The notes under the pieces were generated by a model. That model was given only the letters and a program-made list of their open reading frames with translations, did not search any database and was not told the DNA's origin. Positions 17,894-47,944 of a stretch of 64,000 nt of DNA are shown here, in pieces; the stretch's first letter is position 1, and each line of letters begins with the position of its first letter. Source of the DNA: Chryseobacterium gleum. Lineage in GTDB: Bacteria; Bacteroidota; Bacteroidia; UBA10329. The translations under genes and the position numbers were made by a program. Location of the stretch: positions 118,491 through 182,490 of the forward strand of contig CAMDOM010000001.1 of assembly GCA_945903645.1 (NCBI GenBank), given 5' to 3'.

Positions 17894-17931
17894 AATTTAA
17901 AAGGTTAGTTTTCTAAAATACGTCAAGTAGT

Positions 17932-19905: not shown

Positions 19906-19929
19906 CTTAGCGCTAAAAATAGATAAAGA

Positions 19930-21939: not shown

Positions 21940-22019
21940 GGCCGTATCCTAGAGTTCAAATGAAAAAATAACCCCGCCAAAGCAGGGTTATTTACAGTTA
22001 TATATTTAAACAGGTTAAA

Positions 22020-23177
22020 TTACTGACCTGCAATATTCAAAGCTTCTTGCACTGTTATACGAACTCCATTGTTGTAGGCAGTTACGAATGGTCCAGCTAC
22101 ACCGTTTGTATCACGCAACTCATTGCTGTACGTTTTGGCAGGGCGGTATGAACCAAATTCACCAACAACATACTTGCTTAATCCTTCGTGATTTTCTACA
22201 GAAATGGCGTCTGAAATATTGTGTTTGGAAGCAAACAAAGCTGATTCTGTGCTTTTTGGTCCAGCTGCAATCTGAACTCGGAAAACTAATCCTGGTTTGC
22301 TTTTCAATTCAGAAGCACTAGAAGAAGCTCTGGCAGGTTGCGATTTAACAACTGGTTTGGATTCTTGTGCTTTAGCTTGTTCCGCTTGTTTGCGCTGAGC
22401 TTCTTGGTCTGCAGCAGCTTTGGCGTCTTGCGACTTCTTTACTTCGGTAGCGCGTTTTTCTTCTGCAACTTGTGCGTCTGCTGCAGAAGTGCTGCTGGCA
22501 GGTTGGCTTGAAGACTCTTGTGTTGAAGTTGACTCAGCTGCTGTGTTGGATGCTTCTTGTGCATTAGTATTAGTTGATTCCGCAGGTTTGGCTACTTCTT
22601 GAGATGTGGCTATTTCAGCAGGTTTAGCAGCCTCCTCGGCTTGTGCTGCAGCTCTAGTAGCCGCAGCAGCTTCCTCTTTACGTTTTTGGTCTTCCATTGC
22701 TTGGTTAGCAACAGCAGCGTTTTGTGATGCAGCGGTTGGGTCAGAAGAAACTACAATGATGTCCTTCGGAAGTACAAATTTTTCAGTTTCGTTATTACGA
22801 ATAAAGGAGAAGTTACCCTCCATAATTTGATTTCCGCTAACGCTTGCATCAACTACCACTTTATACGACACTTTTATGTCTGTAGTTGAAGGTAAGGCCA
22901 TCCATAGAAATTTCACTTTTCTATCCTTAAAAGAGAATGTTGAATTTGCACTTTCTCCTGGCATCGCTGTAAATCCAGTGGGTAAATCCTGCTGCAATTT
23001 TGCAAAACCAGTTACATCACCTTTGCTAATATTTAGCTCTACATTAAATTCACCTCCTGGCTTTACTGTAGGGGGAATCTTTGTGGTGACAGACACCTGA
23101 GCCAATAATGTGACTGTAGTAAGGCCGGCAAATACAATGGTAAGTAAAGATTTCTGTATCATTTCTTGAGATGTCAA
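22020..23177 (-). CDS. SPOR-domain protein with N-terminal beta-rich domain and Ala/Glu/Gln/Lys-rich linker
   Basis: Signal peptide/anchor, an N-domain of about 140 aa, and a roughly 150-aa A/E/Q/K/S low-complexity linker. The C-terminal roughly 75 aa (LVFRVQIAAGPKS...KYVVGEFGSYRPAKTYSNELRDT) match the SPOR peptidoglycan-binding pattern. Confidence 0.6.
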   Translation of the reverse strand: MTSQEMIQKSLLTIVFAGLTTVTLLAQVSVTTKIPPTVKPGGEFNVELNISKGDVTGFAKLQQDLPTGFTAMPGESANSTFSFKDRKVKFLWMALPSTTDIKVSYKVVVDASVSGNQIMEGNFSFIRNNETEKFVLPKDIIVVSSDPTAASQNAAVANQAMEDQKRKEEAAAATRAAAQAEEAAKPAEIATSQEVAKPAESTNTNAQEASNTAAESTSTQESSSQPASSTSAADAQVAEEKRATEVKKSQDAKAAADQEAQRKQAEQAKAQESKPVVKSQPARASSSASELKSKPGLVFRVQIAAGPKSTESALFASKHNISDAISVENHEGLSKYVVGEFGSYRPAKTYSNELRDTNGVAGPFVTAYNNGVRITVQEALNIAGQ

Positions 23178-23206
23178 TTTTACGGGGGCGAAGGTATTAT
23201 TATTTG

Positions 23207-24610
23207 TTATTGTTCAAAGAAGTAGTCAATTAACTCGGTAAGTTCAACTACTGTGACTTTTAATTCACCATCAAAGAACTGATCGATTGCTGTGTAAACT
23301 TCATCCACACTTATTTTGCCATTTCGATTGAAATCGAATGTTTTTAGGATTTGAGCACCTTCAACTGTTATTGAGGCTGTCTTTTCCTCTTCACGAGTTT
23401 TATAAAGTGCAATGAGTTCCGGATAAATTTCAAACATTTTAGCCCGAACGGTTCCTACGGTGTCCTTCGTTGGAATCATTTCATCAGTGTAACCAACGCC
23501 AACCATATTCACATTCAATTTAGCATCCGTAGCCGCCTCATCGTCCAAATGGTCTTCCACTCCATCTAAGTCTGAATCGGTAGGACAGCCAAATTCATCC
23601 ACTTTTGCTCCTTTTGGAGTTTCAGGACAGCGGTCGTTAATGTCTTGTATGCCATCTCCATCTGGATCACCATCTAGAGATTCAAATTCGAATGCTGCGA
23701 ATTGATTATCCTTGGTTTTATCTTTTTTAGGAGTGAAGAAATCGTAGTGATATGAAATCCCCGTGTACATAAAAAAATCATTTGAAGCATCGCCAACCCT
23801 ACCTGGCTTACCATCTCGAGTATAACCATCAATTAAGTCAGTAATTGTGTAGTGGAAAGTTGTGGTTAGCTTGATGTTTGATCGCGGAGATACTTTGAAG
23901 TCTAACCCAAACGTGAATGGAATGCTTAGCGCAAACTCAGGATAGTTGCCAAGGCTATCAAGGTTGGACTTACGCATATCTGTTTCATAGTCATAATCTC
24001 TACGAAGTATTTCTGCGTTTTCAGAGTTTAATGCGCCTTCTGCAGCGCTGCGCAATGTTCCATCACTCCAACTATTGTAAAGACGGCCTTCAGAATCCCG
24101 CAAATCACTTTTTGTAGTAAAGTTAAACGCTCCGATACCCACAGCAATAAATGGGCTTAAAAATCGCTTTGGAGGTAGAATACCAGCAAAATTGTAGGTT
24201 CCATGGATATCAAATGCAATTAAGTCAGTTGAGAAATTCACATTTCTTTCAATTGAACGCTCGTGCGCTGATATGCGACCATATGTTACATTGAATTGCA
24301 TTCCAAAAGAAGGCGTGAAATTCTTGGTAGCTACGAACTGCAACCCCAAGTTATGAAGCATCACATTGGAACGGTCATTATTTGTGATTTCTCCGAAATA
24401 ATTCATAAAACCAGCCCCTACCCCAATAATTGGATTATATATTGTATTCTCTTTGTTCCATAGTTTGCGTTCTGCATTCTTGGAATCGCGAATTGCTTTT
24501 TTCGCTTCCGCTTCTGCGCTAGCAGCAACTTTGGCAGTGTCAGACTGTGCCATTCCAACAAAAGGCAAGCAACACAAGAGTAAAAGATAAAGAGTTCGTA
24601 GGTTCATCAA
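23207..24610 (-). CDS. outer-membrane beta-barrel / TSP3-repeat / C-terminal EF-hand protein (array member 4)
   Basis: Signal peptide. N-domain SEGRLYNSWSDGTLRSAAEG...LRRDYDYETDMRK. TSP3 DGDPDGDGIQDINDRCPETPKGAKVDEFGCPTDSDLDGVEDHLDDE. EF-hand loop DFNRNGKISVDE. The C-terminus is ELIDYFFEQ. Confidence 0.6.
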   Translation of the reverse strand: MMNLRTLYLLLLCCLPFVGMAQSDTAKVAASAEAEAKKAIRDSKNAERKLWNKENTIYNPIIGVGAGFMNYFGEITNNDRSNVMLHNLGLQFVATKNFTPSFGMQFNVTYGRISAHERSIERNVNFSTDLIAFDIHGTYNFAGILPPKRFLSPFIAVGIGAFNFTTKSDLRDSEGRLYNSWSDGTLRSAAEGALNSENAEILRRDYDYETDMRKSNLDSLGNYPEFALSIPFTFGLDFKVSPRSNIKLTTTFHYTITDLIDGYTRDGKPGRVGDASNDFFMYTGISYHYDFFTPKKDKTKDNQFAAFEFESLDGDPDGDGIQDINDRCPETPKGAKVDEFGCPTDSDLDGVEDHLDDEAATDAKLNVNMVGVGYTDEMIPTKDTVGTVRAKMFEIYPELIALYKTREEEKTASITVEGAQILKTFDFNRNGKISVDEVYTAIDQFFDGELKVTVVELTELIDYFFEQ

Positions 24611-29860: not shown

Positions 29861-30790
29861 TCACTTACTTAAATTTTTTTCAAGTTGGTCTACAAGTTTC
29901 TTTACACCGAGCTTTGTGTTTAATGTTAAACCCGCTTTTAACCAGTTGAGGGCCTTTTCATCTTGTTTTAGGTCAGCATAAATTTCACCAATTGAACGAT
30001 AATAGTTTGCAATGGTTGATTCACTCAAATCATACTTTTCCGAAAGAATCTTTTCAAAAGTGCTATCCATTTTGCTCAATTGGGTCGCTTTGTAATACGC
30101 GTTTCCCAATGCAAATAGAGTATCTATTCTAGCGTAATTGAACAGATTATTCTTTTCAAGTATCTCGCTGATAAGTTTTTCTTCAAACTGAAAGTCAAAA
30201 AAGTTGTTTTTAACTTTTCTTGCAAGATTTACAGTGCAAAAATTTAAAGCTGGGTAATAGGATTTTATTTTTTCCGCACCATTTTGATTTGTGTCGGAAG
30301 GTCTTTCTGATATTTTGGCAATGCCATCGCTTTCAAGTTTTGTAACAATAAAAGACTTAAAAAGAAGGGTGTTTGTAAATAGGGGAATAAGTGAATTCCC
30401 TGAATTAGAATTATAGTCAGCGAGTTTTTTTTGGACCGCGACATAGTCCATGTTGTCTTTAATTTCTAATTCAGAAATAATCATTTTGATTGTTTCAATA
30501 TATTCTGATTTTGCTTCATCATTTTTGAAGTGAACTAAATCAATATAAGTATAGTCAAAGCCGGCAAATCTGCTTTGAACAGTTATTTGCGTTGCACTGT
30601 TGGACTGATTAGTCTTTTCGCTTGGGACACCAATCTCTGGAGTTTCGGCTACTTTATTCTCCGTTTTATTTTGAAATATTTTTTTCAGCCAATTCATTTT
30701 AGCGTGTTCATTTAATGTGTACCAGCTTATTAAAACTGTTTCTAAACAATCAATGGCCTGCCGTTGCTTGGCAATAAGTTGGTGAAGCAA
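29861..30790 (-). CDS. hypothetical protein in a low-GC island
   Basis: 309-aa ORF with no recognisable motifs. Local GC is about 35% against about 48% in the flanks. Lys/Asn-rich. Confidence 0.45.
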   Translation of the reverse strand: MLHQLIAKQRQAIDCLETVLISWYTLNEHAKMNWLKKIFQNKTENKVAETPEIGVPSEKTNQSNSATQITVQSRFAGFDYTYIDLVHFKNDEAKSEYIETIKMIISELEIKDNMDYVAVQKKLADYNSNSGNSLIPLFTNTLLFKSFIVTKLESDGIAKISERPSDTNQNGAEKIKSYYPALNFCTVNLARKVKNNFFDFQFEEKLISEILEKNNLFNYARIDTLFALGNAYYKATQLSKMDSTFEKILSEKYDLSESTIANYYRSIGEIYADLKQDEKALNWLKAGLTLNTKLGVKKLVDQLEKNLSK

Positions 30791-30872
30791 CTCTACTTGT
30801 GTTTGCTCTTGCTTAATCGCGTTGTCTTTTTGCCCCTCGCTCGGGTAGGCTGGTCAGAAAGAAGTGACAATT

Positions 30873-31604
30873 TTACCAGTCATCTTGGGGCTTTGTTCTT
30901 ACAAATTTTTCAAGTGAAGCTATAAGTCCTTTCACGTCTAAATCTATTTGGGCCCGAATCTTATTACAATTCTCTTCACGCCACGTGTTCCATGTTTCAA
31001 GAGGTGCATCGACATTGTTTGCAGGCATACCTCCTGCGGCAGGGACGTAAAATTTCACTTTAAAATCTGTAATCTCATATTTGTATCTTCCATCTTTAAC
31101 CTGAATCTTGATTGTTTCATGAATATTAATTCCAATTCCACTATAAAATGTTGATTGCCAGTATGTTTCAAAAAATCCTTTACCGATAATCTCACCATTT
31201 TCCTTATCATCCAGTTGAATTACATCCTTACCAGAATTATACGTCTCAATGAACCAACGCTTTGTTCTTTTATATAGTTCTTCTGAACTTAGACCATCTA
31301 TTTGTACCACACCTCCATAGGTGATTTTTCCATCAACAAGTGGGAGCTGTAGCAGGTTGCCTAACTTTCTAAAACGATCAAAGCATTCAGGTGCTTTTAT
31401 TCCATCTATGCTTTCAATAATACTTTCATCAACAGTAGACACACGACCACTTTCTAATTCTATCCTCCACTTTGTTTCCTCATGTCCTAGAATCTTGCAC
31501 TTAGTTTCTGCACCAGAAGTTGTTTTAACAAGAACTAATGCCGCATTTTGGGCATAGCAAGTGGTAGCAGCAAAAATTAATAAACTTAAGAAAAGTGTTT
31601 TCAA
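30873..31604 (-). CDS. hypothetical secreted protein in a low-GC island, possibly DUF4468-like
   Basis: Signal peptide MKTLFLSLLIFAATTCYAQ. Size is 243 aa. Local GC is about 37%. The family assignment is tentative. Confidence 0.4.
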   Translation of the reverse strand: MKTLFLSLLIFAATTCYAQNAALVLVKTTSGAETKCKILGHEETKWRIELESGRVSTVDESIIESIDGIKAPECFDRFRKLGNLLQLPLVDGKITYGGVVQIDGLSSEELYKRTKRWFIETYNSGKDVIQLDDKENGEIIGKGFFETYWQSTFYSGIGINIHETIKIQVKDGRYKYEITDFKVKFYVPAAGGMPANNVDAPLETWNTWREENCNKIRAQIDLDVKGLIASLEKFVRTKPQDDW

Positions 31605-31958
31605 AACGCGAGATTGTTTTTTTGTTCAAAAGTAAGTAACCATCAAACCTAAAACGCGACTTAAAAGAATAATGAAAGAACAAAAGCCCGAATTGGAAAC
31701 CAGTTCATTAACCAAAAAGAACTTCGTGCGTGTCTATTTACTCAAAATGACGGTGGGCAACATCATTTTGGTAGAGGCTCATGATTGGACGTGGAAAACT
31801 CCCTCATCTGCGTGCCTGTGTCTTAGTGTGGAGGAACAAACCAATTGGAAGTTTGATTGCGAAAAGGTGCTAACCCCACTGCGGGTTGGGTGATTACTCG
31901 CGTGAAGTAAAACGCAAGTAATAATACCAAGAGCAAAACTTCCAACTTTTTCCTGAGC

Positions 31959-31993
31959 CAAGGCCATTTTAATCGGGTGGCCTTTTTTGTTTT
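31959..31993 (+). terminator. rho-independent terminator on the plus strand in a minus-strand gene neighbourhood
   Basis: aaggcca-ttttaatcggg-tggcctt is a 7-bp stem, followed by ttttttgtttt. No annotated plus-strand gene ends here except a 73-aa sORF (31672..31893). Confidence 0.55.
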
Positions 31994-32022
31994 ATGTAGC
32001 AACCCAGATGCTTCACCAAGCA

Positions 32023-35792: not shown

Positions 35793-37604
35793 ATGGAACC
35801 AAATAAGCTACTGGAAATACGCAATCTTGTCACCGAATTTCGCACCGAAGGCAAGGTGCTAAAGGCCGTGAACGACATCAGTTTTACTCTAAACAGGGGC
35901 GAAACAATTGGCATAGTGGGAGAATCGGGTTCGGGCAAATCGGTGACTTCCCTTTCGGTAATGCGGTTAATTCCAAATCCACCGGGAAAGATTTCTGGGG
36001 GCGAATTGCTGTTTCATTCGGACACACGCGGCACTATCGACTTGTTGAAACTTTCGGAAAGCGAAATGCGCGCCATTCGTGGCAACGACATCGCCATGAT
36101 TTTTCAGGAGCCAATGACTTCCTTAAATCCTGTGTTTACTTGCGGAAATCAGGTAATGGAAGCTATTCTTTTGCACCAAAAGGTGTCGAAGAAAGAGGCC
36201 AAAGAAAAAACCATTGCGCTGTTCAAAATTGTTCAACTGCCCCGCCCTGAGGCTATTTTCGATTCGTATCCCCACCAAATATCAGGTGGACAAAAGCAAC
36301 GGGTAATGATTGCAATGGCCATGAGTTGCAATCCAAGTATTTTGATTGCTGACGAGCCCACTACCGCACTTGATGTGACGGTGCAACAAACCATTTTGGA
36401 CTTGATGCTGAAACTGCAGCAAGAGAATGACATGGGCATTCTGTTCATAACTCACGACTTGGGTGTGATAGCCGAATTGGCAGACAAAGTGGTGGTGATG
36501 TATAAGGGTAAGATTGTGGAGCAAGGCCCTGTGTTGGAGATATTTCAAAACCCAAAACATCCCTACACCAAAGGATTGTTGGCGTGCAGACCCCCATTGG
36601 AAGTGCGTTTAAAGCGGTTGCCAGTGGTTTCTGATTTTATGGATTTGGATGCAGAAGGCAACATTCGCGAAATTGACCAAAGCATAGCAGATGTGCGCAA
36701 TAATGCCATTGAAACAGACGCAGAGCGAAAGTTGGCTCACGAAAAATTGTATGCCCAAGAGCCCATTCTACGCATCAAAAATCTGAAAACGTATTTTCCT
36801 ATGAAGGCCAACTTCTTTGGAAAAACAACCGATTGGGTGAAAGCCGTGGATGATGTGACCTTTGATGTGTATCCAGGCGAAACATTGGGTTTGGTGGGCG
36901 AAAGCGGCTGCGGAAAAACAACCTTGGGCCGTACTGTGCTGCGGTTGATTGAACCCACAGGAGGCGAAGTTATTTTTAACGGGCATCCGTTGCATAGCAT
37001 GACTCCCACAGAACTGCGCGCCATTCGCAAGGACATTCAAATCATTTTTCAAGACCCTTATTCATCGCTCAATCCGCGCATTACGGTGGGCGATGCTATA
37101 ATGGAACCCATGCAAGTGCATAAGCTCTATGCTGATGATGCCGAGCGCAAAGCCAAAGTGATTGAACTACTGGAACGCGTAAATCTTTTGCCGGAGCATT
37201 TTTACCGCTATCCGCATGAGTTTTCGGGAGGTCAGCGGCAGCGTATCTGCATAGCGCGGGCGTTGGCACTTCGTCCCAAGTTTATTATTTGCGATGAAAG
37301 TGTATCTGCGCTAGATGTTTCGGTGCAGGCGCAAGTGCTAAATCTATTGAACGAACTGAAGCGCGACTTCAATTTTACCTACATCTTCATTAGCCACGAT
37401 TTGAGCGTGGTGAAGTTTATGAGCGACCGTATGGTGGTGATGAATCAAGGGCGTATTGAAGAAATGGGCGATGCCGACCAAATCTATTCCCATCCCAAAA
37501 CGGAGTACACCAAAAAACTCATTGCTGCCATTCCCAAAGGCCGACTGGAGGATATTATTGCCTCCATCAAACTGAAGCAGGACTACAAGAAAGAGTTGGC
37601 TTAG
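35793..37604 (+). CDS. ABC transporter ATP-binding protein with duplicated ATPase domains (YejF/GsiA/DppDF-like)
   Basis: Two complete ABC cassettes: GESGSGKS...[13 protein letters not shown]...ADEPTTALD and GESGCGKTT...[13 protein letters not shown]...CDESVSALD. Oligopeptide-type C-terminal extensions. Confidence 0.9.
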
Positions 37605-37612
37605 GCCAAAAT

Positions 37613-37826
37613 TATTCTCCCGTAATCACCAGTTTGGTGGTTTGTACATCACTATCGGTAGCTACTCGCACGAGGTAATTGCCGTTGGCAATACCGCTGA
37701 CGAGCACCAAGTTTGGTAGGGCGGTCATGGAATGCTCCCAAACCTTATAAAGCACCATCCCACAATCGTTATTTATGGGGTTGTTCGCAGCATCATTCCA
37801 TAATGCGAGAATTTGCCAAAACTAGA
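37613..37826 (-). pseudogene. orphan T9SS C-terminal sorting-domain fragment
   Basis: Reverse translation gives ...MVLYKVWEHSMTALPNLVLVSGIANGNYLVRVATDSDVQTTKLVITGE then a stop. This is a Por_Secre_tail-like C-terminal domain with no upstream cargo domain. Confidence 0.4.
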
Positions 37827-38019
37827 ATAGTAGGTTGGAATTGCTCCGGGAAAAAGGATTGGGTTTGGGCGAGCCATGAGGGTAAGCGTTTAACCCCATG
37901 GTAGAGCCCGCAGAAATAGTAAGAAATCAAAAAAGATGAAAGCACTTCATTTGCATACTTTTAGACGGTTCTAAAGTATAACGCTTGGAACCAACAGAGT
38001 TTGACTTTTTTACTTAATC

Positions 38020-41000
38020 GTGATTTTTCTGAACCGTTTTCTTTCACTTCGATTTTTTGCCGCTGTGTTGCTCTGTTTCAGCGGGATAGGTGCGATTGGG
38101 CAAACCTATGACTTCCAAAATTTCACTACCGAAAATGGGTTATCCAAATCTCAAATACTTGCACTTTTTCAGGGCGAGGAAGGCGAAATGTGGATGGGAA
38201 CCAATGCTGGTGGAGTGAACCGCTATAATGGAGCGGGCTTTAGCTATCTGAACAAGGAAAATGGCTTGCCCGACAATACCGTTTTCGCATTTGCAAAAGA
38301 CAAGCTTGGGCGATTACTTATAGGCACCAACAATGGCCTAACGGTAATGAATGGCATCCGCATCGATACCGTTACAATTGCGCAAGGGCTAACGCACGAG
38401 GCCATTCATAGCCTTCATGTGGCCAAGAATGGAACCATTTGGGTGGGCACGCGCAAAGGAGTTTGTACCCTAAGTGGACTCAAAATCACACCCTTTTTGG
38501 GCGATACCAATTTGCTTAATTCTACGGTGCTCAACATAAGAGAAGGTGCCGATGGCGGCATTTGGTTTTGTACCGTTCAGCATGGATTGTTCCGATTTGA
38601 AGGAGGGAAATTGAAGCAATTTAGTGTGGAAAGTGGTCTGCTTCGCAATTACGTGTATGATGCAATGCCGCAGCAAGGGGGCAAGGCTTGGATTTTTGGA
38701 TACGATGGATTGTACCACACGCAGGGAGACACTGCCAAGCTACAAACCGTGGCCGAAGTGCCCAAGGGCACTTCGTTCTATACCTATCAGCGCGATCGCT
38801 CGGGCAATATCTGGATAGGAACATCGCGTGGAGTATTGAAATTCAAAGACAATAGCTACACCCTATTGAACGAGTCGAATGGGCTTGTGAACAACGATAT
38901 ATGGAAAATACTGCAAGACCGTGAAGGCAATTTGTGGTTTGGGTCGAAGGTGAATGGCGTTTCGAAATTGAATAGCGAACGCTTTAAGCTTTTTGGCTTG
39001 GATTCGCTTACGAAACAAGATGTGAATGCAGTGCTTAAAGACAGCAAATCGAGGGTGTGGCTTGGTACTAAAAAAGGGCTTGTGCTTTGGGGCGACAATA
39101 AAGTGCAACGGGTATTTAAGTTTTCGGATGGATTGTCTACCGAAATTGTAAATGATTTGAAGGAGGATGTTAGCGGCAATATTTTCATTGCCACAAATTA
39201 TGGCCTCACCATTTATGACGGTAAAAAACTTAAGGCTATTGAATCGCCTGATGAGATTCTGAACGAATGCTACACCATATTGTTGGAAGATTCGAATGTG
39301 TGGGTGGGCACCAAGGGAGGAGTTGCACGCTATGAAAACGGAAAGCTAGAAGCGGTAAAAGAAGCTACCACATTTAGGCGCGAGGTTTTTCATGTCTGCA
39401 AACTGGAGGATGGAATTTGGTTTGCCTACGAAGATGGTTTGCTACATTATGATGGTAAGACATTTCGGCAGTTGAAGGCGAAGGATGGCTTTACCGATGG
39501 GCGAACCCGAAGTGTAATAAATGGGCCAGATGGCCATCTGTGGTTTGGTAATACAGATGGAGTATTTAAGTGGGATGGAAAAAAACTGACTCGATTTGAC
39601 CAAAACAACGGATTGATGGCAAATGGTGTCAATTCGTTGATTTTTGACACGAAAGGAAATTTGTGGGTGGGCCAATCGAAGGGTTTGTGCAAAATGACCT
39701 TTAGTGGCGATAGCCTACAATCGGTGATTCGCTACTCGCGAGAGCAAGGCTTTTTGGGGCTTGATTGTAACACAAATTCTATCATGATAGATGAGGATGG
39801 TGTGCTATGGGTTGGCACATCAAACGGGCTTATTTCGTTCGACCCGCGGTTGGACAAAGGCGAATACCACAAGCCGTTGACCCGCATCAACGAAGTGAAA
39901 CTGTATTCGCAATCGGTAAACTGGCAACTGTTTACTGATTCGCTAACAGACACAGGTCTTCCAAGAAACTTGGAACTGGACTACGATAAGAACCACCTCA
40001 CTTTTGTGTTTACGGGAGTTAGCCTTACCACACCTGAAAGCATCAACTACATCTATTTCTTAAAGGGATTTGATGATGAGTGGTCGCCTGTGAGCAACAA
40101 CAACGAGGCTACCTACGCCAACCTGCCGCCCGGAAGTTACACTTTTATGGTGCGGTCGGGCTATGGCAACGAAATATGGGATAACGAAGCTGTTGAATTC
40201 AGTTTTACCATTAAGCCGCCATTTTATCGCACCACGTGGTTCTATATCTTAATTGGATTGATAGCTGCGGGTATTGCCTATTCCTATTATGCCATTCGGA
40301 GGGCCAATGTGAAAATCACCGCTCAAAATGCATTTATCGAAGGGCAAAAAGGTGAGATTGAGAAGAAGAAGGACGAGATTGAGAAGAAAAACCGGGAGAT
40401 GACCGATAGCATCAACTATGCGAGCACTATTCAATCGGCCATATTGCCATCGGACGAACTTTGGTTTAAGTTGTTGCCCGATTCGTTTGTGTTTTTTCAA
40501 CCTAAAGATATTGTAAGTGGCGATTTTTATTGGTTGGAAAGCCGCGATTCGGAAGTGTTTTTTAGCGCAGTAGACTGCACTGGGCATGGAGTGCCAGGGG
40601 CATTGATGAGTATTATTGGAAACAATGGGTTGAACCAAGCCGTGAACGAACACAGGTTAATGAATCCTGCCGAAATCCTGAATTACCTCAGCGTGAGCGT
40701 CAACGAATCGCTACGCAAATCAGAGCGCAGCAATTACGTGAAAGACGGGATGGACTTGGCGTTTTGTCGGCTCAATTTGCAGACCCGCGTGTTGCATTAC
40801 GCTGGCGCCTACAACCCATTGGTTATTATTCGCAATGGAGAATTAATGGTAACCAAAGCCGACCGCTTGGCCATAGGCTCTATGGACAATGTGGAAAAGA
40901 GTTTTATCAATCACGAGCTGCAATTGCAACCGGGCGATTGTGTGTATGTGTATTCAGATGGTTATGCCGACCAGTTTGGCGGGCCGCTGGGCAAGAAGCT

Positions 41001-41148
41001 GAAATCGGCACCGATGCTCAACAAACTGGCAGAAATAAGTAGCCTCCCCATGACCAAGCAGGGCAATGAACTGCGTAAGTTCTTTCTAGAATGGAAGGGC
41101 CAGCTAGAACAGGTGGATGATATTTGTATTATCGGGGTGCGGGTTTAG
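38020..41148 (+). CDS. periplasmic two-component-regulator propeller (Reg_prop repeats plus Y_Y_Y) sensor fused via a TM helix and coiled coil to a SpoIIE/PP2C-family Ser/Thr phosphatase (GTG start)
   Basis: About 12 repeats of the G-x-W-x-G-T-x-x-G-L pattern (WMGTNAGGVNRY, IWVGTRKGV, IWIGTSRGVLKF ...). A Y_Y_Y block, a TM helix WFYILIGLIAAGIAYSYYAI, and the coiled coil EIEKKKDEIEKKNRE. PP2C/SpoIIE motifs SGDFYW and DCTGHGVPGALMS, with a terminal acidic motif. Confidence 0.8.
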   Translation: MIFLNRFLSLRFFAAVLLCFSGIGAIGQTYDFQNFTTENGLSKSQILALFQGEEGEMWMGTNAGGVNRYNGAGFSYLNKENGLPDNTVFAFAKDKLGRLLIGTNNGLTVMNGIRIDTVTIAQGLTHEAIHSLHVAKNGTIWVGTRKGVCTLSGLKITPFLGDTNLLNSTVLNIREGADGGIWFCTVQHGLFRFEGGKLKQFSVESGLLRNYVYDAMPQQGGKAWIFGYDGLYHTQGDTAKLQTVAEVPKGTSFYTYQRDRSGNIWIGTSRGVLKFKDNSYTLLNESNGLVNNDIWKILQDREGNLWFGSKVNGVSKLNSERFKLFGLDSLTKQDVNAVLKDSKSRVWLGTKKGLVLWGDNKVQRVFKFSDGLSTEIVNDLKEDVSGNIFIATNYGLTIYDGKKLKAIESPDEILNECYTILLEDSNVWVGTKGGVARYENGKLEAVKEATTFRREVFHVCKLEDGIWFAYEDGLLHYDGKTFRQLKAKDGFTDGRTRSVINGPDGHLWFGNTDGVFKWDGKKLTRFDQNNGLMANGVNSLIFDTKGNLWVGQSKGLCKMTFSGDSLQSVIRYSREQGFLGLDCNTNSIMIDEDGVLWVGTSNGLISFDPRLDKGEYHKPLTRINEVKLYSQSVNWQLFTDSLTDTGLPRNLELDYDKNHLTFVFTGVSLTTPESINYIYFLKGFDDEWSPVSNNNEATYANLPPGSYTFMVRSGYGNEIWDNEAVEFSFTIKPPFYRTTWFYILIGLIAAGIAYSYYAIRRANVKITAQNAFIEGQKGEIEKKKDEIEKKNREMTDSINYASTIQSAILPSDELWFKLLPDSFVFFQPKDIVSGDFYWLESRDSEVFFSAVDCTGHGVPGALMSIIGNNGLNQAVNEHRLMNPAEILNYLSVSVNESLRKSERSNYVKDGMDLAFCRLNLQTRVLHYAGAYNPLVIIRNGELMVTKADRLAIGSMDNVEKSFINHELQLQPGDCVYVYSDGYADQFGGPLGKKLKSAPMLNKLAEISSLPMTKQGNELRKFFLEWKGQLEQVDDICIIGVRV

Positions 41149-41156
41149 ACTAGCTT

Positions 41157-41735
41157 TTAAGCATACCGCTCATCCACAGCAAACCTTTCGGGATGTTTGG
41201 GTGGAATGTCACGATAAAACGCCACTATTTCGCGCATGTCTTTATCAATATCGCCTGAAGGGAACACGATTTTTCCCACACCAGCGCGTTTTCGTTTATA
41301 ATCCAAATAGCCTAAAGCAATAGGCACTTTGGCATTGAGGGCCACGTAGTAAAATCCAGTTTTCCATTCGGTTCTGCGTGAGCGCGTTCCTTCTGGAGTC
41401 ACCATCATGGCCAATCGTTCGTGATCGTCAAATAGCACTACCATGGCCTCAGTCATGCTTTTGCGCGGTTCGCCCGGTTGCTTTGGTCTGCGGTCTATGC
41501 CTATGCCGCCTAAGGCGCGGGTCAACGGGCCAAAAGGAAAGCGTAACCATTCGTCTTTTATAGTGAAACGAAGCGGTACTCCCATTAAGAAGAATGCTGC
41601 ACGGGCATACACCAAATCCCAATTGCTGGTGTGGGGCGCGGCTATTATCACGCAGCGGTTCACATCTTTGGGCACATCCTCATCCTTGGTCCAACCACTG
41701 ATTGCGAAAATTAACTTGGAAATAAACTTGCCCAT
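41157..41735 (-). CDS. 1-acyl-sn-glycerol-3-phosphate acyltransferase (PlsC family); start moved to an internal Met
   Basis: H(X)4D acyltransferase motif HTSNWD, then GPLTRALGGIGIDRR and PEGTRS blocks. The track start at 41858 would overlap the divergent neighbour by 48 bp, so MGKFISKLIFAISGW at 41735 is the more plausible start. Confidence 0.75.
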   Translation of the reverse strand: MGKFISKLIFAISGWTKDEDVPKDVNRCVIIAAPHTSNWDLVYARAAFFLMGVPLRFTIKDEWLRFPFGPLTRALGGIGIDRRPKQPGEPRKSMTEAMVVLFDDHERLAMMVTPEGTRSRRTEWKTGFYYVALNAKVPIALGYLDYKRKRAGVGKIVFPSGDIDKDMREIVAFYRDIPPKHPERFAVDERYA

Positions 41736-41810
41736 AGCGCTTTTTTGAAGGGTTGATGGGGGCGAAGATACTACAGACCTTTCTCTACCTTCGCGCCAAA
41801 ATCTAAAAGC

Positions 41811-42785
41811 ATGACACGCGGACCAATCTCCCATTTCATTGAAGAACATTACCGACACTTCAATGCAGCAGCACTAGTAGATGCTGCTAAAGGATACGAA
41901 GCCCACCTAGCGGAAGGCGGCAAAATGATGGTTACTATGGCTGGTGCTATGAGCACAGCAGAGTTGGGTCGCTCGTTTGCTGAGATGATTCGTCAGGGCA
42001 AAGTGGACATTATCTCGTGCACAGGAGCCAACTTGGAAGAAGACCTGATGAACCTAGTGGCGCATTCGCACTACAAGCGCGTGCCGCACTACCGCGACTT
42101 GAGCCCCCAAGACGAATGGGATTTGTTGGAGCAAGGCTTTAACCGCGTAACCGATACCTGCATCCCCGAAGAAGAGGCCTTTCGCAGATTGCAGAAGCAT
42201 ATTTATGAGCTTTGGAAAGATGCCAACGCCAAAGGTGAACGCTATTTTCCGCACGAATACATGTACAAAATGTTGCTTTCGGGTGTGTTGGAACAGTACT
42301 ATGAGATTGACCCCAAGAACAGTTGGATGCTAGCCGCTGCCGAGCGCAACCTGCCGATAGTTTGCCCAGGATGGGAAGACAGCACTATGGGTAACATTTT
42401 CGCTAGCTATTGCATCAAAGGCGAATTGATTAGCACCACCATGAAAAGCGGCATCGATTATATGGTGTGGCTCACGGGCTGGTATCGCGAGAATAGCAGT
42501 GGCAAAGGCGTAGGCTTTTTCCAGATAGGTGGCGGCATTGCGGGCGATTTCCCTATTTGCGTAGTGCCTATGATGTACCAAGATTTGGAGTGGCATGATG
42601 TGCCGTTTTGGAGTTATTTCTGCCAAATTAGCGATAGCACCACCAGTTATGGTTCGTACTCAGGAGCGGTTCCCAACGAGAAAATCACGTGGGGCAAACT
42701 CGACATCCATACCCCAAAATTCATCATCGAGAGCGATGCCACCATCGTTGCCCCGCTGGTATTTGCTTGGGTGTTGAAATGGTAA
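41811..42785 (+). CDS. deoxyhypusine synthase-like protein (DHS/homospermidine synthase family)
   Basis: Size is 324 aa. The NAD-binding Rossmann-like core and conserved DHS-like blocks (…MVTMAGAMSTAELG…DIISCTGANLEEDL…) are present. Confidence 0.65.
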   Translation: MTRGPISHFIEEHYRHFNAAALVDAAKGYEAHLAEGGKMMVTMAGAMSTAELGRSFAEMIRQGKVDIISCTGANLEEDLMNLVAHSHYKRVPHYRDLSPQDEWDLLEQGFNRVTDTCIPEEEAFRRLQKHIYELWKDANAKGERYFPHEYMYKMLLSGVLEQYYEIDPKNSWMLAAAERNLPIVCPGWEDSTMGNIFASYCIKGELISTTMKSGIDYMVWLTGWYRENSSGKGVGFFQIGGGIAGDFPICVVPMMYQDLEWHDVPFWSYFCQISDSTTSYGSYSGAVPNEKITWGKLDIHTPKFIIESDATIVAPLVFAWVLKW

Positions 42786-43077
42786 TACGCTATTGTTCGC
42801 TATCAATTCGGTAGCTACTTTTGCGCACGTTCTTTGCATTCTTACTTATCCAGAAAGACGGAGGGATTAGGCCCGCTGATGTCTTGGCAACCCCAATTGT
42901 TGGAAGGTGCCAAATCCTGCTCTAAGCGAAAGCTAGGAGAGAGATAGGTTGTAGCTCCACTGTGGACTTCTAACTTGACACCATCATGCCCATCCAACAC
43001 CCATTGGAAGGGCATTTTTGTTTGGAATAAGTGATGTGTGATGCGCGAAAAATGATGTGAATCTTAATTTTTGAACA

Positions 43078-44112
43078 GTGAACAGAACAGAACTTTTACA
43101 AGACGCCCTCAGCAAACGCATCCTTGTGTTGGATGGAGCGATGGGCACCATGATACAGCGCCACACGCTAACGGAGGAGGATTTTCGTGGCGATCGGTTC
43201 AAGTGGCATTCCCATCCGCTGAAAGGCAACAATGACCTGCTTAGCATCACGCGGCCCGACATCATCAAGGGTATTCATGCTGCGTATTTTGAAGCAGGGG
43301 CCGACATTGCCGAAACCAACACGTTTAGCGGAACCACCATCGCGCAAGCAGATTATCATTTGCAAGATGCGGTGTATGACATCAACTTTCAAAGCGCTAA
43401 AATTGCCCGAGAGGTGGCCGATGAGTTCACCGCTCGCGAACCGCACAAGCCGCGCTTTGTGGCGGGCAGCATTGGCCCAACCAACCGCACGGCCAGCCTT
43501 TCGCCCGATGTGAACGACCCAGGGTTTAGAGCCGTAACCTTCAACGAGCTGAAGGATGCCTACATCTTCCAAGTGAAAGGGCTGATGGATGGTGGCGCAG
43601 ATATTCTGATGGTGGAAACCGTGTTCGATACGCTCAATGCCAAAGCCGCGCTCTTCGGCATTGAGGAATACTTCGAGCAGATTGGAAGGCGCATTCCCAT
43701 CATGGTATCGGGCACCATTACCGATGCCAGCGGGCGCACCCTAAGCGGACAGACCACCGAGGCATTCCTTATTTCCGTATCTCATATACCACTGCTTTCG
43801 GTTGGTTTGAATTGTGCTCTTGGTGCTTCTGCACTGCGCCCCTATTTGCAAGTGTTGGCCAAGAACGCCCCCTTTGCAATAAGCGCCCACCCGAATGCTG
43901 GCCTACCCAACGAATTTGGCGAGTATGATGAGACCCCAGAAATAATGGCTCCCCAAATAGAGGATTTCCTAAAAGAGAATCTCATAAACATTATCGGTGG
44001 TTGCTGTGGCACCACTCCCGACCACATTCGGGCCATTGCTAAAGTTGCGGCCAAGTACAAACCAAGGAAGAAGTCAGATATCAGTAGTCAGATGTCAGAG
44101 GCTACTGGGTAA
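43078..44112 (+). CDS. metH: methionine synthase, N-terminal homocysteine S-methyltransferase (Hcy-binding) module, encoded as a separate ORF
   Basis: Collinear with E. coli MetH residues 1 to about 340 ([11 protein letters not shown]; C-terminal Zn ligands GGCCGTTP). The ORF runs into the inserted element and stops at the TAA at 44110-12. Confidence 0.85.
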
Positions 44113-44561
44113 AAAATTAGATTTCAGATGTCAGACATTGGATGTCAGAGTAATACGTTAAGCAAATGCACCATTTAGAACAACTCAAGGTTTGGAAATT
44201 GGCGATGGAGATTGCGAAGGATGTGTATATCATCACCAAAGATTTTCCTTCTGAAGAAAAATTTGGTTTGACATCACAAGTTCGAAGGGCGGCTGTTTCT
44301 ATTGCCAGTAATATCGCAGAAGGAGCGGGCAGATATTCAGATAAGGAATTTGCCCAATTTCTTTCCATCGCATCAGGATCTTCTTTTGAAGTTAGAACTT
44401 AGCTCCTCCTTTCTGAACAACTTGGTTTTTCTTCCAATGAAAATTTAATAGATGTATTGAACAAACTTTCAGAACTAGAACTCATGATTCTAGGACTTCG
44501 TAAATCATTAAATACCCCATAATAGGCCATTTTCCAAGACCCATTTAATCTGACATCTGAT
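44088..44561. mobile_element. about 470-bp insertion in the metH interdomain linker, flanked by a 12-bp perfect inverted repeat, carrying an Avd-like gene
   Basis: tcagatgtcaga occurs at 44088-99 and 44124-35, with a partial third copy gatgtcagag at 44141-50. Its exact reverse complement tctgacatctga occurs at 44549-60. The ATG of the downstream metH ORF (44560) lies at the edge of the right repeat. Confidence 0.55.
44166..44513 (+). pseudogene. four-helix-bundle protein (23S rRNA intervening-sequence protein / Avd-like family) with an in-frame TAG
   Basis: MHHLEQLKVWKLAMEIAKDVYIITKDFPSEEKFGLTSQVRRAAVSIASNIAEGAGRY...FEVRT-[TAG at 44400-02]-QLLLSEQLGFSSNENLIDVLNKLSELELMILGLRKSLNTP. The full-length family pattern is present if TAG is read through. 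Confidence 0.65.
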
Positions 44562-47262
44562 GTCTGAAATCCATAACTCAATGTCTGAATCTAATATACC
44601 ACCATTGCAACTCTCGGGACTGGAACCTCTTCAAATCTATGAGGGGTCGAACTTCATCAACATAGGGGAGCGCACCAATGTGACCGGGTCGCGCATGTTC
44701 CTCCGTTTAATAAAGGAAGGAAAGTATGAAGACGCGCTGGTAGTGGCCCGCGACCAAGTGGAAGGAGGTGCTCAAATTTTGGACGTGAACATGGACGAGG
44801 GCATGATCGATGGCAAAGAGGCCATGGTCAAGTTCCTGCATCTTATTGCTTCAGAGCCCGATATTTCCCGCATTCCAATTATGATTGACAGCTCGAAATG
44901 GGAGATTATCGAGGCAGGGCTGCAATGTGTGCAGGGCAAGAGTGTGGTTAATTCCATCAGCCTGAAAGAAGGCGAGGAACAGTTTATCCATCACGCCAAA
45001 TTGGTCAAGCGTTATGGTGCGGCAGTAATCGTCATGGCGTTTGACGAGGCTGGTCAAGCCGATAGCTATGAGCGTAGGATAGAAATCTGTAAACGCTGCT
45101 ACGACATTTTGGTGAATGTCGTGGGCTTCCCGCGTCAGGACATAATCTTCGACCCGAACATCTTTCCTGTGGCTACGGGCATGGAGGAACACAACAACAA
45201 CGCTGTAGACTTTTTCCGCGCCACAGCTTGGATAAAGGAAAACTTGCCAGGGGCTAAAGTAAGTGGAGGCGTCAGCAATGTATCGTTCTCTTTCCGCGGC
45301 AACGACCCTGTGCGCGAGGCCATGCACTCGGCTTTCCTCTACCACGGCATCAAAGCGGGCATGGACATGGGCATCGTGAACCCGGCCATGCTCGAAGTGT
45401 ACGACCAGATTCCGAAAGAACTTTTGGAGCGGGTGGAGGATGTGCTGCTCAACCGCAGGGCCGATGCCACCGAGCGTCTGCTCGAATTTGCTGAAAGCTA
45501 CAAAGGCGTAAAGAAAGATGCCAAAGAAGACCTCGAATGGCGGTCTTTGCCCGTTCGCGAAAGATTAAGCCACGCCTTAGTGAAAGGTATTGTGGAATTT
45601 ATTGAGCCAGATGTGGAGGAATGTCGCCTGTCGATGGCCAAGCCATTGCATGTTATCGAAGGCCCGCTGATGGATGGAATGAACATCGTTGGCGACCTTT
45701 TTGGAGCAGGAAAGATGTTCCTGCCGCAAGTAGTAAAAAGTGCACGGGTGATGAAAAAGGCTGTCGCGTATCTCCTCCCATTCATGGAGCAAGATGTGGA
45801 CGGTTCGGCATCGAAGTCGGGCAAAGTGCTGATGGCCACCGTGAAGGGCGATGTGCATGACATCGGAAAGAATATCGTGGGAGTGGTGCTTGCCTGCAAT
45901 AACTACGAGGTGATTGACATGGGTGTAATGGTGCCCGCAGAGAAGATTCTTGCGGAGGCCAAGGCTCAGAATGTTGATGTCATCGGGCTTAGCGGTCTCA
46001 TCACACCTTCGTTGGACGAGATGGTGCATTTGGCAAAAGAGATGCAACGGAGTGGCTTCACCATACCATTGCTCATTGGTGGTGCAACCACTTCAAGGGT
46101 GCATACAGCGGTGAAGATTGACAGTCATTACACCAACGATCAGGCTGTGCACGTGCTCGATGCTTCGCGGGCGGTGACGGTGGTAGAAAGGCTTCTTAGT
46201 GCCGACAAGAAGGCTTATGTGGACGGCATCAAGGCCGAATATGCCCAAATGCGCGAGACCCATGCCCGCAAACAGGGCGAGAAGAACTACGTGACGCTTG
46301 CCGATGCCCGCGCCAATCGTTTCCCTATCACGTGGAAGGCTGAGGACATCCATCGCCCGAATAAACTGGGCATCACAACGATGAGCGACTTCCCGCTTGC
46401 TGAATTGGTACCCTACATCGACTGGACACCCTTCTTCCAAACGTGGGAGCTGGCTGGCCGCTATCCGCGCATCTTAGAAGATGAAGTGGTGGGAGAGGAA
46501 GCCAAACGGCTATTCGCGGATGCACAGGCGATGCTCAACAAGATTGTTTCGGAGAAATGGCTCACCGCAAATGGAGTGATTGGCCTTTGGCCCGCCAATG
46601 CCGTGGGGGATGATATGGAGGTTTATGATTCCACCGACCCGACAAAATCCATCGGTAAGTTCCATTCCCTCCGTCAACAAGGCAAGAAGGGCACGGACGT
46701 TCCGAACATCGCATTGGCCGATTATCTCGCTCCAAACGAAACGGGACTTAAGGACTATTTGGGCGGATTTGTGGTCACCACAGGCATCGGCATTGAGGAG
46801 AAGCTGACCGAGTTCGCTGCCGACCATGACGACTACAGCAGTATCATGCTCAAGGCGCTGGCCGACCGATTGGCCGAGGCATTTGCCGAGAAACTGCACG
46901 AGATTGTACGCAAGGAACTTTGGGGCTACGCTTCGGATGAGTCATTGGACAACGAGAGTCTCATCAAGGAAAAATACCGTGGCATCCGTCCCGCGCCCGG
47001 TTATCCCGCCTGTCCGGATCACACCGAGAAACCTGAGCTGTTCCGACTGCTTAATGCCACAGAGAACACGGGTGCCATCCTCACCGAATCCATGGCGATG
47101 ATGCCAGCAGCGGCTGTAAGCGGTTGGTATTTCGGGCATCCCGAATCGAAATACTTCGGCCTTGGTAAGATTACCAAAGATCAGGTGGAGGATTACGCCT
47201 GGCGCAAGGGAATGACATTGGACGAGGCAGAGCGGTGGTTGAGTCCTGCGTTGAGTTATTGA
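44560..47262 (+). CDS. metH: methionine synthase, pterin-binding + cobalamin-binding + AdoMet-activation modules, encoded as a separate ORF
   Basis: Collinear with E. coli MetH from ...RLSGLEPLNI onward (here [11 protein letters not shown]) to the C-terminus. B12-binding D-x-H-x-x-G ([11 protein letters not shown]). Reactivation domain ...[15 protein letters not shown]...VSGWYF. Confidence 0.9.
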
Positions 47263-47263
47263 G

Positions 47264-47944
47264 CTAAACTAGTCTGCGCAGTGCCTCCCGCTTAGAAAGT
47301 AAATGCATAAGCGTTTGGTTTACAAACTGTTTCACGGCCTCAGGATTGGTCTTGGCATATTCGCGAAGCGCCCAATCGATGGCCTTGTTAATGAAAAATT
47401 CCTTACTCCTCAGGTTGAGACGGACATAGTGAAACAGCAGATTTACATCCGTTTTTTCCTTGTAGCCCAATTGGCAGATGATGCTTGCCCTGCACAGCCA
47501 TATGTTATCGTGAACGGCCCATTGGTCGGTTATCTCTGCTTTGTGTTCGGGAAATTTGAGGAAATACGGCCCGCAAATCCAGGATGAAAGACCATCCACC
47601 GTGTCCCATCAACTATTGGTTACTATGAATTCTTCAATCAACGACAGGTCGCTTTCTTTGATGGAGCGGATTTGCTTTTCCATGATGTCAACGGCATTGT
47701 GGTGAAATCCACGATGAGGTGCATTCCATAATCTGCGTAGTACTTCGGGGTCGAAGGGAGTTTGCATTCCATGCTCCTTCAAAAAAGCAGATAGCAACGC
47801 TCTGCGGTGTGTGGCCTTAATGCCGAAAAAAGGAAAGTCCCATTTCATGTAAGCCTCCATGGCTTTGGCGTTCTCGGCATCTGCATGCTGTTCGAATGCT
47901 TCGCGAGGCGGGATTAGATAGGGTATAATAATACCTGTTATCAC
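47264..47944 (-). pseudogene. DNA alkylation repair protein (AlkC/AlkD HEAT-like repeat family) interrupted by an in-frame TGA
   Basis: Two adjacent 111-aa ORFs are in the same frame: ...IEEFIVTNS-[TGA at 47608-10]-WDTVDGLSSWI... The family consensus at this position is S-W-W-D-T-V-D, so TGG became TGA at a conserved Trp. Confidence 0.6.

Follow-up and report, generated by a model that had tools for sequence, protein, structure and literature searches.

A Chryseobacterium gleum double-propeller sensor protein with a predicted SiaA-type phosphatase output

The gene at positions 38020 to 41148 (+ strand) of the window, i.e., of the whole 64-kb stretch of DNA that was analyzed, starts with GTG and encodes a transmembrane sensor phosphatase of 1,042 amino acids (aa), as seen from the list of open reading frames (ORFs), the translation, and Pfam. 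A protein identical to this product (P0001) is present in public assemblies. The reading frame was as described in an earlier note on this DNA, with the motifs SGDFYW at aa 833 to 838, DCTGHGVPGALMS at aa 852 to 864, and DGYADQFGG at aa 980 to 988. From the N terminus onward, the product comprises a signal or anchor segment, two Reg_prop propellers, a Y_Y_Y domain, a transmembrane (TM) helix, a helical linker, and a SpoIIE/PP2C domain. The previously claimed combination of a sensor with a PP2C output was confirmed, since Reg_prop (140.9 bits), Y_Y_Y (PF07495; 60.3 bits, aa 670 to 732), and SpoIIE all scored above the Pfam gathering scores.

All of the following features lie on the + strand. 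An N-terminal hydrophobic helix, either a signal peptide or a signal anchor, occupies aa 1 to 28 (38020 to 38103), where a hydropathy peak coincides with a modeled helix at aa 2 to 27. The first beta-propeller (aa 32 to 325; 38113 to 38994) appeared in the AlphaFold model as seven four-strand groups with a pLDDT of about 90 to 97, and the second (aa 335 to 607; 39022 to 39840) as seven more such groups. The structural prediction that had been proposed as a check of the propeller count hence gave two propellers of seven blades each. The Ig-like Y_Y_Y domain (aa 620 to 731; 39877 to 40212), assigned by Pfam PF07495, was modeled as a beta-sandwich with strands over aa 620 to 731. Hydropathy and the model placed a single TM helix at aa 739 to 769 (40234 to 40326), with a hydrophobic core at aa 741 to 759 and the motif RRANVK directly after it on the cytoplasmic side. 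In the cytoplasmic linker (40327 to 40452), a stretch modeled with low confidence (aa 769 to 784) precedes a helix (aa 781 to 808) that is also seen in the family consensus. This helix bears the conserved sequence DSINYAxxIQxAILP, in which Y800, A801, and Q805 are invariant, aligns with the SiaA segment DSLDYASLIQRAILP, and leads into the PP2C/SpoIIE phosphatase domain (aa 812 to 1042; 40453 to 41145). Only two hydrophobic segments were found by hydropathy (aa 1 to 28 and 741 to 759), and both are flanked by Arg/Lys residues, which fits an N-in/periplasmic sensor/C-in topology and agrees with the periplasmic sensor and cytoplasmic phosphatase of the earlier note. The protein is an inner-membrane, single-pass sensor phosphatase.

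The sensor module is homologous to the periplasmic domains of Bacteroides hybrid two-component system (HTCS) proteins. The family profile matched 4a2l with 411 bits and 3v9f with 385 bits, and Foldseek aligned the sensor with HTCS structures at a TMt of 0.76 to 0.78; both propellers gave these structural matches, including that to the periplasmic domain of BT4663. Sequence identity to BT4663 is only 18 to 19% in the Foldseek alignment, so ligand specificity is not transferable. Moreover, neither SusC/SusD nor a polysaccharide utilization locus (PUL) context was found in the 64-kb window, and none recurred beside homologues at 84 loci. The proposal of a polysaccharide-type signal was an extrapolation from Bacteroides HTCS, and nothing in our analysis supports it.

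The output domain was assigned to the SpoIIE family (PF07228) with 65.5 bits (aa 844 to 1042), the cut-off being 25, and the PP2C domain was confidently modeled by AlphaFold. In an alignment of 55 homologues with 30 to 78% identity to the query, D835, D852, D909, D912, D980, D984, D1033, and D1034 were invariant in all 55 sequences, and the motif DCTGHG was likewise invariant across the aligned family. D835, D852, D912, D980, D984, D1033, and D1034 are putative metal-binding residues. D912, D980, and D984 align with D534, D600, and D604 of SiaA, and D852-C853 aligns with the residue pair containing C475, the Asp adjoining C475 being our own reading of the alignment; the metal roles of SiaA C475, D534, D600, and D604 have been described (PMC7647112). 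Since the metal-binding Asp columns are invariant in the 55 homologues, the domain does not look like the pseudo-phosphatase that the earlier note had considered. The PP2C active site is intact, and a catalytically competent PPM/PP2C phosphatase is predicted.

We then considered the subtype of the phosphatase. The NCBIfam SiaA model (NF038263) matched the C-terminal 264 aa (aa 779 to 1042) with 192.5 bits, covering model positions 396 to 657 only, and the whole protein does not reach the equivalog cut-off of 700. In a single-sequence search of the PDB, the sole match was the SiaA PP2C domain (6k4e; E = 1.9e-33), and Foldseek superposed the domain on 6k4e with a TMt of 0.92, an rmsd of 1.8 A, and 31% identity. 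The family profile matched SiaA-PP2C with 250.8 bits compared to 18.5 bits for RssB and 13.5 bits for RsbX, and RsbU and SpoIIE structures were not matched at E <= 1. Judged by these sequence and profile comparisons, the phosphatase domain is of the SiaA type and not of the RsbU/SpoIIE type, and the RsbU-like phosphatase proposed in the earlier note has to be corrected. No HAMP domain was detected in the Pfam scan, and the distance between the TM helix and the PP2C domain is only about 40 residues.

The earlier note also implied that the architecture was unusual. Instead, at least 2,460 protein clusters matched, nearly all of the best 120 with the same architecture, as did at least 598 loci of species-representative genomes, almost all of them from Bacteroidota. 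Databases already label these proteins as "SpoIIE family protein phosphatase," "sensor domain/RsbU," or "serine phosphatase RsbU." Literature searches on propeller or Y_Y_Y domains with a phosphatase, on SiaB/SiaC, or on partner switching in Bacteroidetes returned no study of this architecture. Of the two parts of "common characterised family," a description that the note held against its own idea, the first thus applies and the second does not. The family, which extends across Bacteroidota, is catalogued but uncharacterized, and the gene is an unremarkable member of it.

The gene is flanked, as previously noted, by an ABC ATPase with two ABC_tran domains (35793 to 37604, + strand) and by a PlsC acyltransferase (41157 to 41858, - strand), both assigned by Pfam. 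The surrounding genes are housekeeping genes, and no glycoside hydrolase cluster adjoins. The ABC ATPase is also present at the locus of a 67%-identical orthologue and is lacking beside more distant homologues, a pattern that resembles local synteny. A Pfam scan of all 50 ORFs of at least 90 aa in the 64-kb window detected no STAS, HATPase_c_2, SiaC, DUF6272, or Ser/Thr kinase gene, and no SiaB-like, SiaC-like, or STAS sequence turned up when the six-frame translation of the window was searched with HMMs and tblastn. The absence of a linked STAS protein or anti-sigma kinase reported before was thereby confirmed across the 64 kb.

Partner genes were then looked for beside homologues. Among 84 homologue loci, 9 carried a SiaB-like DUF6272 gene and/or a SiaC gene within 10 kb, as a raw count; the SiaC match reached 138.9 bits and the DUF6272 match 147.6 bits. 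These genes lie within about 1.6 kb in five loci (L053, L035, L067, L074, and L018), although L067 is a weak SiaC match (E = 2e-5). The 150 nearest small neighbor ORFs of the 84 homologues included SiaC four times and DUF6272 three times, and the 25 recurrent families listed for them did not include STAS. In a metagenomic locus (L154), a gene for an 1,100-aa Reg_prop/Y_Y_Y/SpoIIE protein, 30% identical to the window protein, is followed by siaB and siaC on one strand. Hence, the recurrent signaling neighbors are SiaC (PF09345) and DUF6272 rather than STAS/RsbW, contrary to the RsbU-like partner switching that had been suggested.

A search for conserved neighbors, in which five loci were inspected individually and ORFs were clustered across the 84 loci, revealed no universally conserved neighbor and no family present in more than 30% of the loci. 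The neighbor cluster found at 25 loci consists of T9SS-tail surface proteins, which make up about 3% of all ORFs, and fits their general abundance. PorP/SprF, PKD/PD40, LOG, thioredoxin, and His biosynthesis neighbors look like lineage synteny. No conserved third gene that could encode an effector was found beside SiaB/SiaC in the phosphatase-linked loci, whose flanking genes are not homologous to one another. None of the loci that we examined showed a diguanylate cyclase partner.

The linkage was also viewed from the SiaC side, by a metagenome scan with three SiaC-like sequences. In about 70 of 80 loci, siaB and siaC were closely joined as a cassette, and the phospho-acceptor motif is preserved in the SiaC-like proteins (EYFNTSSSK versus LLYLNTSSIK, with T68, in Pseudomonas aeruginosa). 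A PP2C gene was found within 8 kb of the cassette in only 2 of 80 loci; taken against the roughly 35 long loci, these 2 do not clearly exceed chance expectation. Reciprocal linkage therefore adds no support beyond the L154 example. A TerB-ABC transporter adjoins the cassette in 40 of the 80 loci, and metagenomic loci from Bacteroidota also encode STAS proteins (PF01740, 62.4 bits). That sensor phosphatases and siaB-siaC cassettes of Bacteroidota are mostly encoded apart suggests convergence in trans, with many sensors acting on few switches.

Given a SiaA-type output domain, the search for a substrate should turn to a SiaC/DUF1987 protein and the DUF6272 kinase paired with it instead of RsbV/RsbW. 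We consider it somewhat probable, at slightly better than an even chance, that the window protein is an orphan sensor phosphatase acting in trans on a SiaC-type phosphoprotein whose siaB-siaC cassette lies elsewhere in the genome. As in BT4663, a periplasmic ligand would alter how a sensor dimer is arranged, and this change would pass through the TM and linker helices to a PP2C dimer and switch its metal-dependent activity. Such a switching step has been proposed for RsbU-family phosphatases generally, with coiled-coil linkers controlling PPM dimers under exchangeable sensor domains (PMC12143880), and would fit the dimeric crystal structure of SiaA-PP2C (PMC7647112). The active phosphatase would then dephosphorylate a small STAS-fold switch protein, most likely of the SiaC type (PF09345/DUF1987), phosphorylated at the conserved Thr of NTSS by a SiaB-type kinase (DUF6272). 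With the cassette elsewhere in the genome, the phosphatase would be one of several orphan inputs that reach a shared phospho-switch in trans. Dimerization, ligand, activity, and effector are what we infer in this scheme. Against it stand the lack of SiaB/SiaC in the 64-kb window, the linkage in only about 10% of homologue loci, the existence of STAS genes in Bacteroidota, whose products may also be substrates, and the absence here of the HAMP domain of SiaA.

Classical RsbU-like switching, in which an unlinked RsbV-like STAS protein would be dephosphorylated, sequester an RsbW-like anti-sigma kinase, and free an alternative sigma factor, appears unlikely. It would agree with the Pfam SpoIIE assignment, with the label "serine phosphatase RsbU" given to homologues, and with the STAS proteins of Bacteroidota metagenomic loci; moreover, SiaC itself is STAS-like in fold (PMC8457831), so that the specificity of the phosphatase could overlap with STAS. 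However, the window lacks STAS and HATPase_c_2, the families recurring among the closest small neighbors are SiaC and DUF6272, not STAS, and the family profile favors SiaA over RsbX, with RsbU and SpoIIE structures unmatched at E <= 1. Markedly unlikely, in our view, are substrates outside partner-switch modules, such as targets of Hanks-type Ser/Thr kinases or the product of a neighboring gene, e.g., the ABC ATPase. About 90% of homologue loci have no linked partner gene, and the ATPase is kept at the 67%-identical orthologue locus, but it is lost in more distant homologues, and the window has no Ser/Thr kinase gene. Furthermore, STAS-fold switch proteins are the substrates of those SpoIIE/SiaA-type PPMs that have been characterized to date (PMC11418112 and PMC7647112).

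A further alternative concerns the input only and is compatible with a SiaC-type output, namely, that the protein is the equivalent of a glycan-sensing HTCS, recognizing an oligosaccharide and controlling a PUL with a phosphatase in place of the kinase output. Homology of the sensor to heparin-sensing BT4663 and to BT3049 speaks for this, but the identity to BT4663 is too low to transfer specificity, the gene is surrounded by housekeeping genes without adjoining SusC/SusD or glycoside hydrolases, and no PUL-type family recurs beside the 84 homologues, which makes glycan sensing quite unlikely. Finally, it is extremely improbable that the C-terminal domain is a degenerate pseudo-phosphatase that merely scaffolds or binds, since its metal-coordinating Asp residues and DCTGHG are invariant in the family and match active SiaA, and the domain is confidently modeled; no supporting point was found beyond the moderate SpoIIE score of 65.5 bits.

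Returning to action in trans on a SiaC-type protein, a wider model can be put forward tentatively and with considerable doubt: a network of "many sensors, one switch" spanning the phylum, in which orphan SiaA-type PP2C sensors of Bacteroidota would converge in trans on a separate, syntenically conserved SiaB-SiaC cassette, with an output other than a diguanylate cyclase. Its inputs may include propeller/Y_Y_Y, TPR, and other sensors, often as tandem paralogues, and the window gene may be one HTCS-like input; the TerB-ABC transporter is a speculative candidate effector. The single gene is ordinary, and the value of the analysis lies in two corrections, i.e., that the output is of the SiaA type and that sensors and cassettes are encoded apart. 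If true, these would provide a testable framework for a large, uncharacterized class of Bacteroidota signaling proteins, and the concept that kinase and phosphatase outputs are exchanged as modules would then also cover the HTCS sensor module.

Among known systems, RsbU of Chlamydia also carries its sensor in the periplasm, with the genes for its partners scattered over the genome. In RsbU, RsbP, and SpoIIE of Bacillus subtilis, too, a helical linker transmits control from the N-terminal sensor to the C-terminal PP2C domain (PMC12143880), but these proteins are distant in sequence, with no RsbU or SpoIIE structure in the PDB matched at E <= 1, their sensor domain differs, and STAS and RsbW genes do not recur beside the homologues of the window protein at the 84 loci. 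The Bacteroides HTCS proteins BT4663, BT3049, and BT4673 (4A2L/4A2M, 3V9F, and 3OTT) share the two seven-bladed Reg_prop propellers and the Y_Y_Y domain followed by one TM helix. In contrast, the only Pfam domain past the TM helix of the window protein is SpoIIE, compared to HisKA/HATPase_c/REC/AraC in HTCS; no PUL adjoins the gene, and identity is only 18 to 21%. SiaA of P. aeruginosa (SiaABCD; 6K4E; NF038263) has two TM segments and a HAMP domain, whereas the window protein has a 700-aa double propeller with Y_Y_Y, and the siaBCD operon, encoding the SiaB kinase, the SiaC phosphoprotein, and the SiaD cyclase, has no counterpart in the 64-kb window. Both are nevertheless membrane-anchored sensors with a C-terminal PP2C domain of what appears to be the same subtype (31% identity; TM, 0.92), with the same predicted three-metal Asp set and a DS(I/L)xYAxxIQxAILP lead-in helix, and a minority of the homologues of the window protein adjoin SiaB-like and SiaC genes.

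Translation of the ORF at 38020-41148 (+), which starts with GTG, yielded a product of 1042 amino acids (aa) containing the motifs SGDFYW, DCTGHGVPGALMS and DGYADQFGG, in agreement with the earlier note. Pfam matches above the gathering score were obtained for Reg_prop (140.9 bits), Y_Y_Y (60.3 bits, aa 670-732) and SpoIIE (65.5 bits, aa 844-1042). Hydropathy analysis revealed two hydrophobic segments only (aa 1-28 and aa 741-759), the second directly followed by RRANVK, and this pattern fits a predicted topology with an N-terminal signal/anchor, a periplasmic region of ~710 residues, one transmembrane (TM) helix and a cytoplasmic C terminus. In an AlphaFold2 model built from an alignment of 55 homologues (mean pLDDT, 88.2), we counted fourteen four-stranded blades, arranged as two propellers of seven blades each (aa 32-325 and aa 335-607). 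C-terminal to these lie the Ig-like Y_Y_Y domain (aa 620-731), two helices (aa 739-769 and 781-808) joined by a low-confidence stretch (aa 769-784), and an alpha/beta PP2C domain (aa 812-1042). Foldseek matched the periplasmic part in the PDB to BT4663 (4a2m/4a2l; TMt 0.76-0.78), a heparin-sensing hybrid two-component system (HTCS) of Bacteroides, and to the HTCS sensor BT3049. This kinship was confirmed at the sequence level by the family profile, which scored 411 bits against 4a2l; the sensor is of the HTCS type. The polysaccharide-type signal proposed previously is without contextual support, since identity to BT4663 is only 18-19% and no SusC/SusD or polysaccharide utilisation locus genes lie near the window gene or recur beside its homologues.

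The residues D835, D852 (in DCTGHG), D909, D912, D980, D984, D1033 and D1034 were invariant in 55 homologues with 30-78% identity to the query. In a pairwise alignment to 6k4e, the PP2C domain of the Pseudomonas aeruginosa phosphatase SiaA, D912, D980 and D984 align with SiaA D534, D600 and D604, and D852-C853 aligns with the pair containing C475; these four SiaA residues are metal ligands or their supports (PMC7647112). A degenerate pseudo-phosphatase lacking the metal-binding Asp residues was thus ruled out, and the predicted PP2C active site is intact. As for the type of phosphatase, which had been read as RsbU-like, Foldseek superposed the C-terminal part on SiaA-PP2C with a TMt of 0.92, an rmsd of 1.8 A and 31% identity, and SiaA-PP2C was the sole match in a single-protein PDB sequence search. 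The family profile scored 250.8 bits against 6k4e, followed among PPM structures by RssB (18.5 bits) and RsbX (13.5 bits), with no RsbU or SpoIIE structure at E<=1, which argues against an RsbU-like enzyme. The NCBIfam SiaA model matched aa 779-1042 with 192.5 bits, below its equivalog cutoff of 700 bits because the sensor half differs. Judged by sequence, the predicted phosphatase domain is SiaA-like, not RsbU- or SpoIIE-like.

Of 8000 candidates scored in a search through 5.8 billion protein clusters, at least 2460 matched at E<=1e-10. Among the 120 best, at 29-100% identity, nearly all combine Reg_prop, Y_Y_Y and SpoIIE, under the source names "SpoIIE family protein phosphatase" or [quoted passage not shown]. 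Moreover, scanning a single genome for each species confirmed at least 598 loci, the best 80 being from Flavobacteriales, Bacteroidales, Chitinophagaceae, Sphingobacteriaceae, Cytophagales and Crocinitomicaceae. This combination of domains is thus common, and databases catalogue it already. A common characterised family had been put forward as a refutation; this one is common but not characterised, as full-text literature searches found no study of the Reg_prop/Y_Y_Y/SpoIIE architecture. The window gene is typical of a large Bacteroidota family of HTCS-like sensor phosphatases that is annotated but experimentally uncharacterised. Two of the best 80 loci (L023 and L071) are in metagenome-assembled genomes labelled Gammaproteobacteria (Hydrocarboniphaga daqingensis and Candidatus Marithrix sp.), the other 78 being Bacteroidota; either mis-binning of contigs or horizontal transfer could explain these two. 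Tandem paralogues are found in many loci, with 145 family members over 84 homologue loci. Sensor-PP2C genes form tandem clusters in L003, L025, L056, L080 and L085, and in L003 (12885-17473) the propeller-SpoIIE gene is closely followed by two TPR-SpoIIE genes; up to five family ORFs lie within ~20 kb in some loci, those of L080 apparently being fragments of split genes.

The phosphatase gene is flanked by a double-ABC_tran ATPase (35793-37604, +) and an acyltransferase (41157-41858, -), with a deoxyhypusine synthase homologue and a split metH also nearby. Pfam scans of every window ORF of at least 90 aa detected no STAS, HATPase_c_2, SiaC or DUF6272 gene, and the six-frame translation, searched specifically for partner genes with HMMs and tblastn, yielded none, so that the reported lack of a linked partner-switching module holds across the full 64 kb. 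The 415-bp intergenic region 5' of the gene (37605-38019) had no Rfam match and includes a 48-aa minus-strand ORF called in one public annotation. The split methionine synthase, encoded by one gene with a homocysteine S-methyltransferase domain (43078-44112) and another with the pterin/B12/activation domains (44560-47262) with a small 23S_rRNA_IVP (four-helix-bundle) gene in between (~44166-44402), lies downstream of a SAM (S-box) riboswitch controlling it (42843-42950, +; 81 bits versus a gathering score of 44.4).

Elsewhere in the window, an AlkD-like DNA_alkylation repair gene (47264-47944, -) is interrupted by one in-frame TGA (47609-47611; ...AAT AGT TGA TGG GAC...), which leaves two ORFs of 111 aa each and may lie where a Trp-Trp pair is expected in the family. 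An independent ENA contig has only the 111-aa N-terminal half called, and the gene is probably a nonsense-mutated pseudogene. G+C content is low at 16000-24000 and 30000-32000 (0.365-0.41 versus 0.44-0.51 elsewhere), where two adjoining proteins of paralogue-like size (657 and 669 aa), with weak EF-hand matches at their C termini, a SPOR-domain protein and several ORFs without Pfam match are encoded; these are possibly surface genes that were acquired or evolve fast. An isolated 102-aa HTH_Tnp_1 ORF of the IS3-family OrfA type (11238-11546, -), with no adjoining transposase catalytic ORF, is probably an IS remnant. By their Pfam domains only, a rhodanese-domain protein (349 aa) and an AIRS/AIRS_C protein (347 aa) overlapping by 17 bp (58441-60517, +) resemble selU (tRNA 2-selenouridine synthase) and selD (selenophosphate synthetase).

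Five homologue loci were inspected singly and the ORFs of all 84 were clustered, revealing no universally conserved neighbour. The only recurrent signalling partners were a SiaC-family phosphoprotein of 124-148 aa (PF09345, 138.9 bits) and a protein of the SiaB-like kinase family, 181-194 aa in length (DUF6272, 147.6 bits). In 9 of the 84 loci (L007, L018, L035, L053, L057, L060, L067, L074 and L080; the match in L067 is weak), at least one of the two is encoded within 10 kb, and in five of these within ~1.6 kb, for instance 511 bp downstream in L053 and 26 bp downstream in L067. Among the 150 nearest small ORFs, Pfam matched SiaC four times and DUF6272 three times. Homologues are thus occasionally linked to SiaB/SiaC genes, at a raw frequency of only ~10% of loci.

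Using SiaC-like proteins as bait in a metagenome scan, we observed a tight siaB-siaC cassette in ~70 of 80 loci, with a PP2C gene within 8 kb in only two, so that linkage is not clearly above chance from this side. One (L107) has a TPR-SpoIIE protein; the other (L154) carries on one strand, in this order, genes for a 467-aa PP2C and a 1100-aa Reg_prop/Y_Y_Y/SpoIIE protein (full-length identity to the window protein, 30%), a 273-aa ORF, siaB and siaC. In the SiaC-like proteins, the phospho-acceptor motif is kept (EYFNTSSSK versus LLYLNTSSIK with T68 in P. aeruginosa). A ~1020-aa TerB-ABC_tran-ABC2_membrane gene lies convergently downstream of the cassette in 40 of the 80 loci, and a THUMP/RlmL-type methyltransferase gene upstream in 33; the ABC protein may be a SiaC effector or merely syntenic. 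STAS genes occur in six of these loci, indicating that STAS substrates exist in the phylum, and a STAS protein is a possible substrate of the phosphatase; the 25 recurrent families listed for the small ORFs nearest to homologues do not include STAS.

Orphan phosphatases and orphan siaB-siaC cassettes form a complementary pattern, suggesting a shared switch on which several sensors converge. With a SiaC-type protein as that switch, ligand binding would rearrange a sensor dimer as in BT4663, for which Lowe et al. reportedly described a ligand-induced dimer rearrangement in 2012. The signal would then pass through the TM helix and helical linker to a PP2C dimer, as in the general model of linker-transmitted control (PMC12143880); SiaA-PP2C crystallises as a dimer (PMC7647112). 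The SiaC-type protein, encoded elsewhere, would lose its phosphate to the window phosphatase, and an effector would act downstream; neither a diguanylate cyclase nor any other third gene common to the phosphatase-linked loci was found beside SiaB/SiaC. The gene, motifs and absence of linked partners given in the earlier note stand, and its interpretation stands in part, with a SiaA-type in place of an RsbU-like phosphatase and minus the polysaccharide signal. The output of this HTCS-type sensor is best compared with SiaA, not RsbU.
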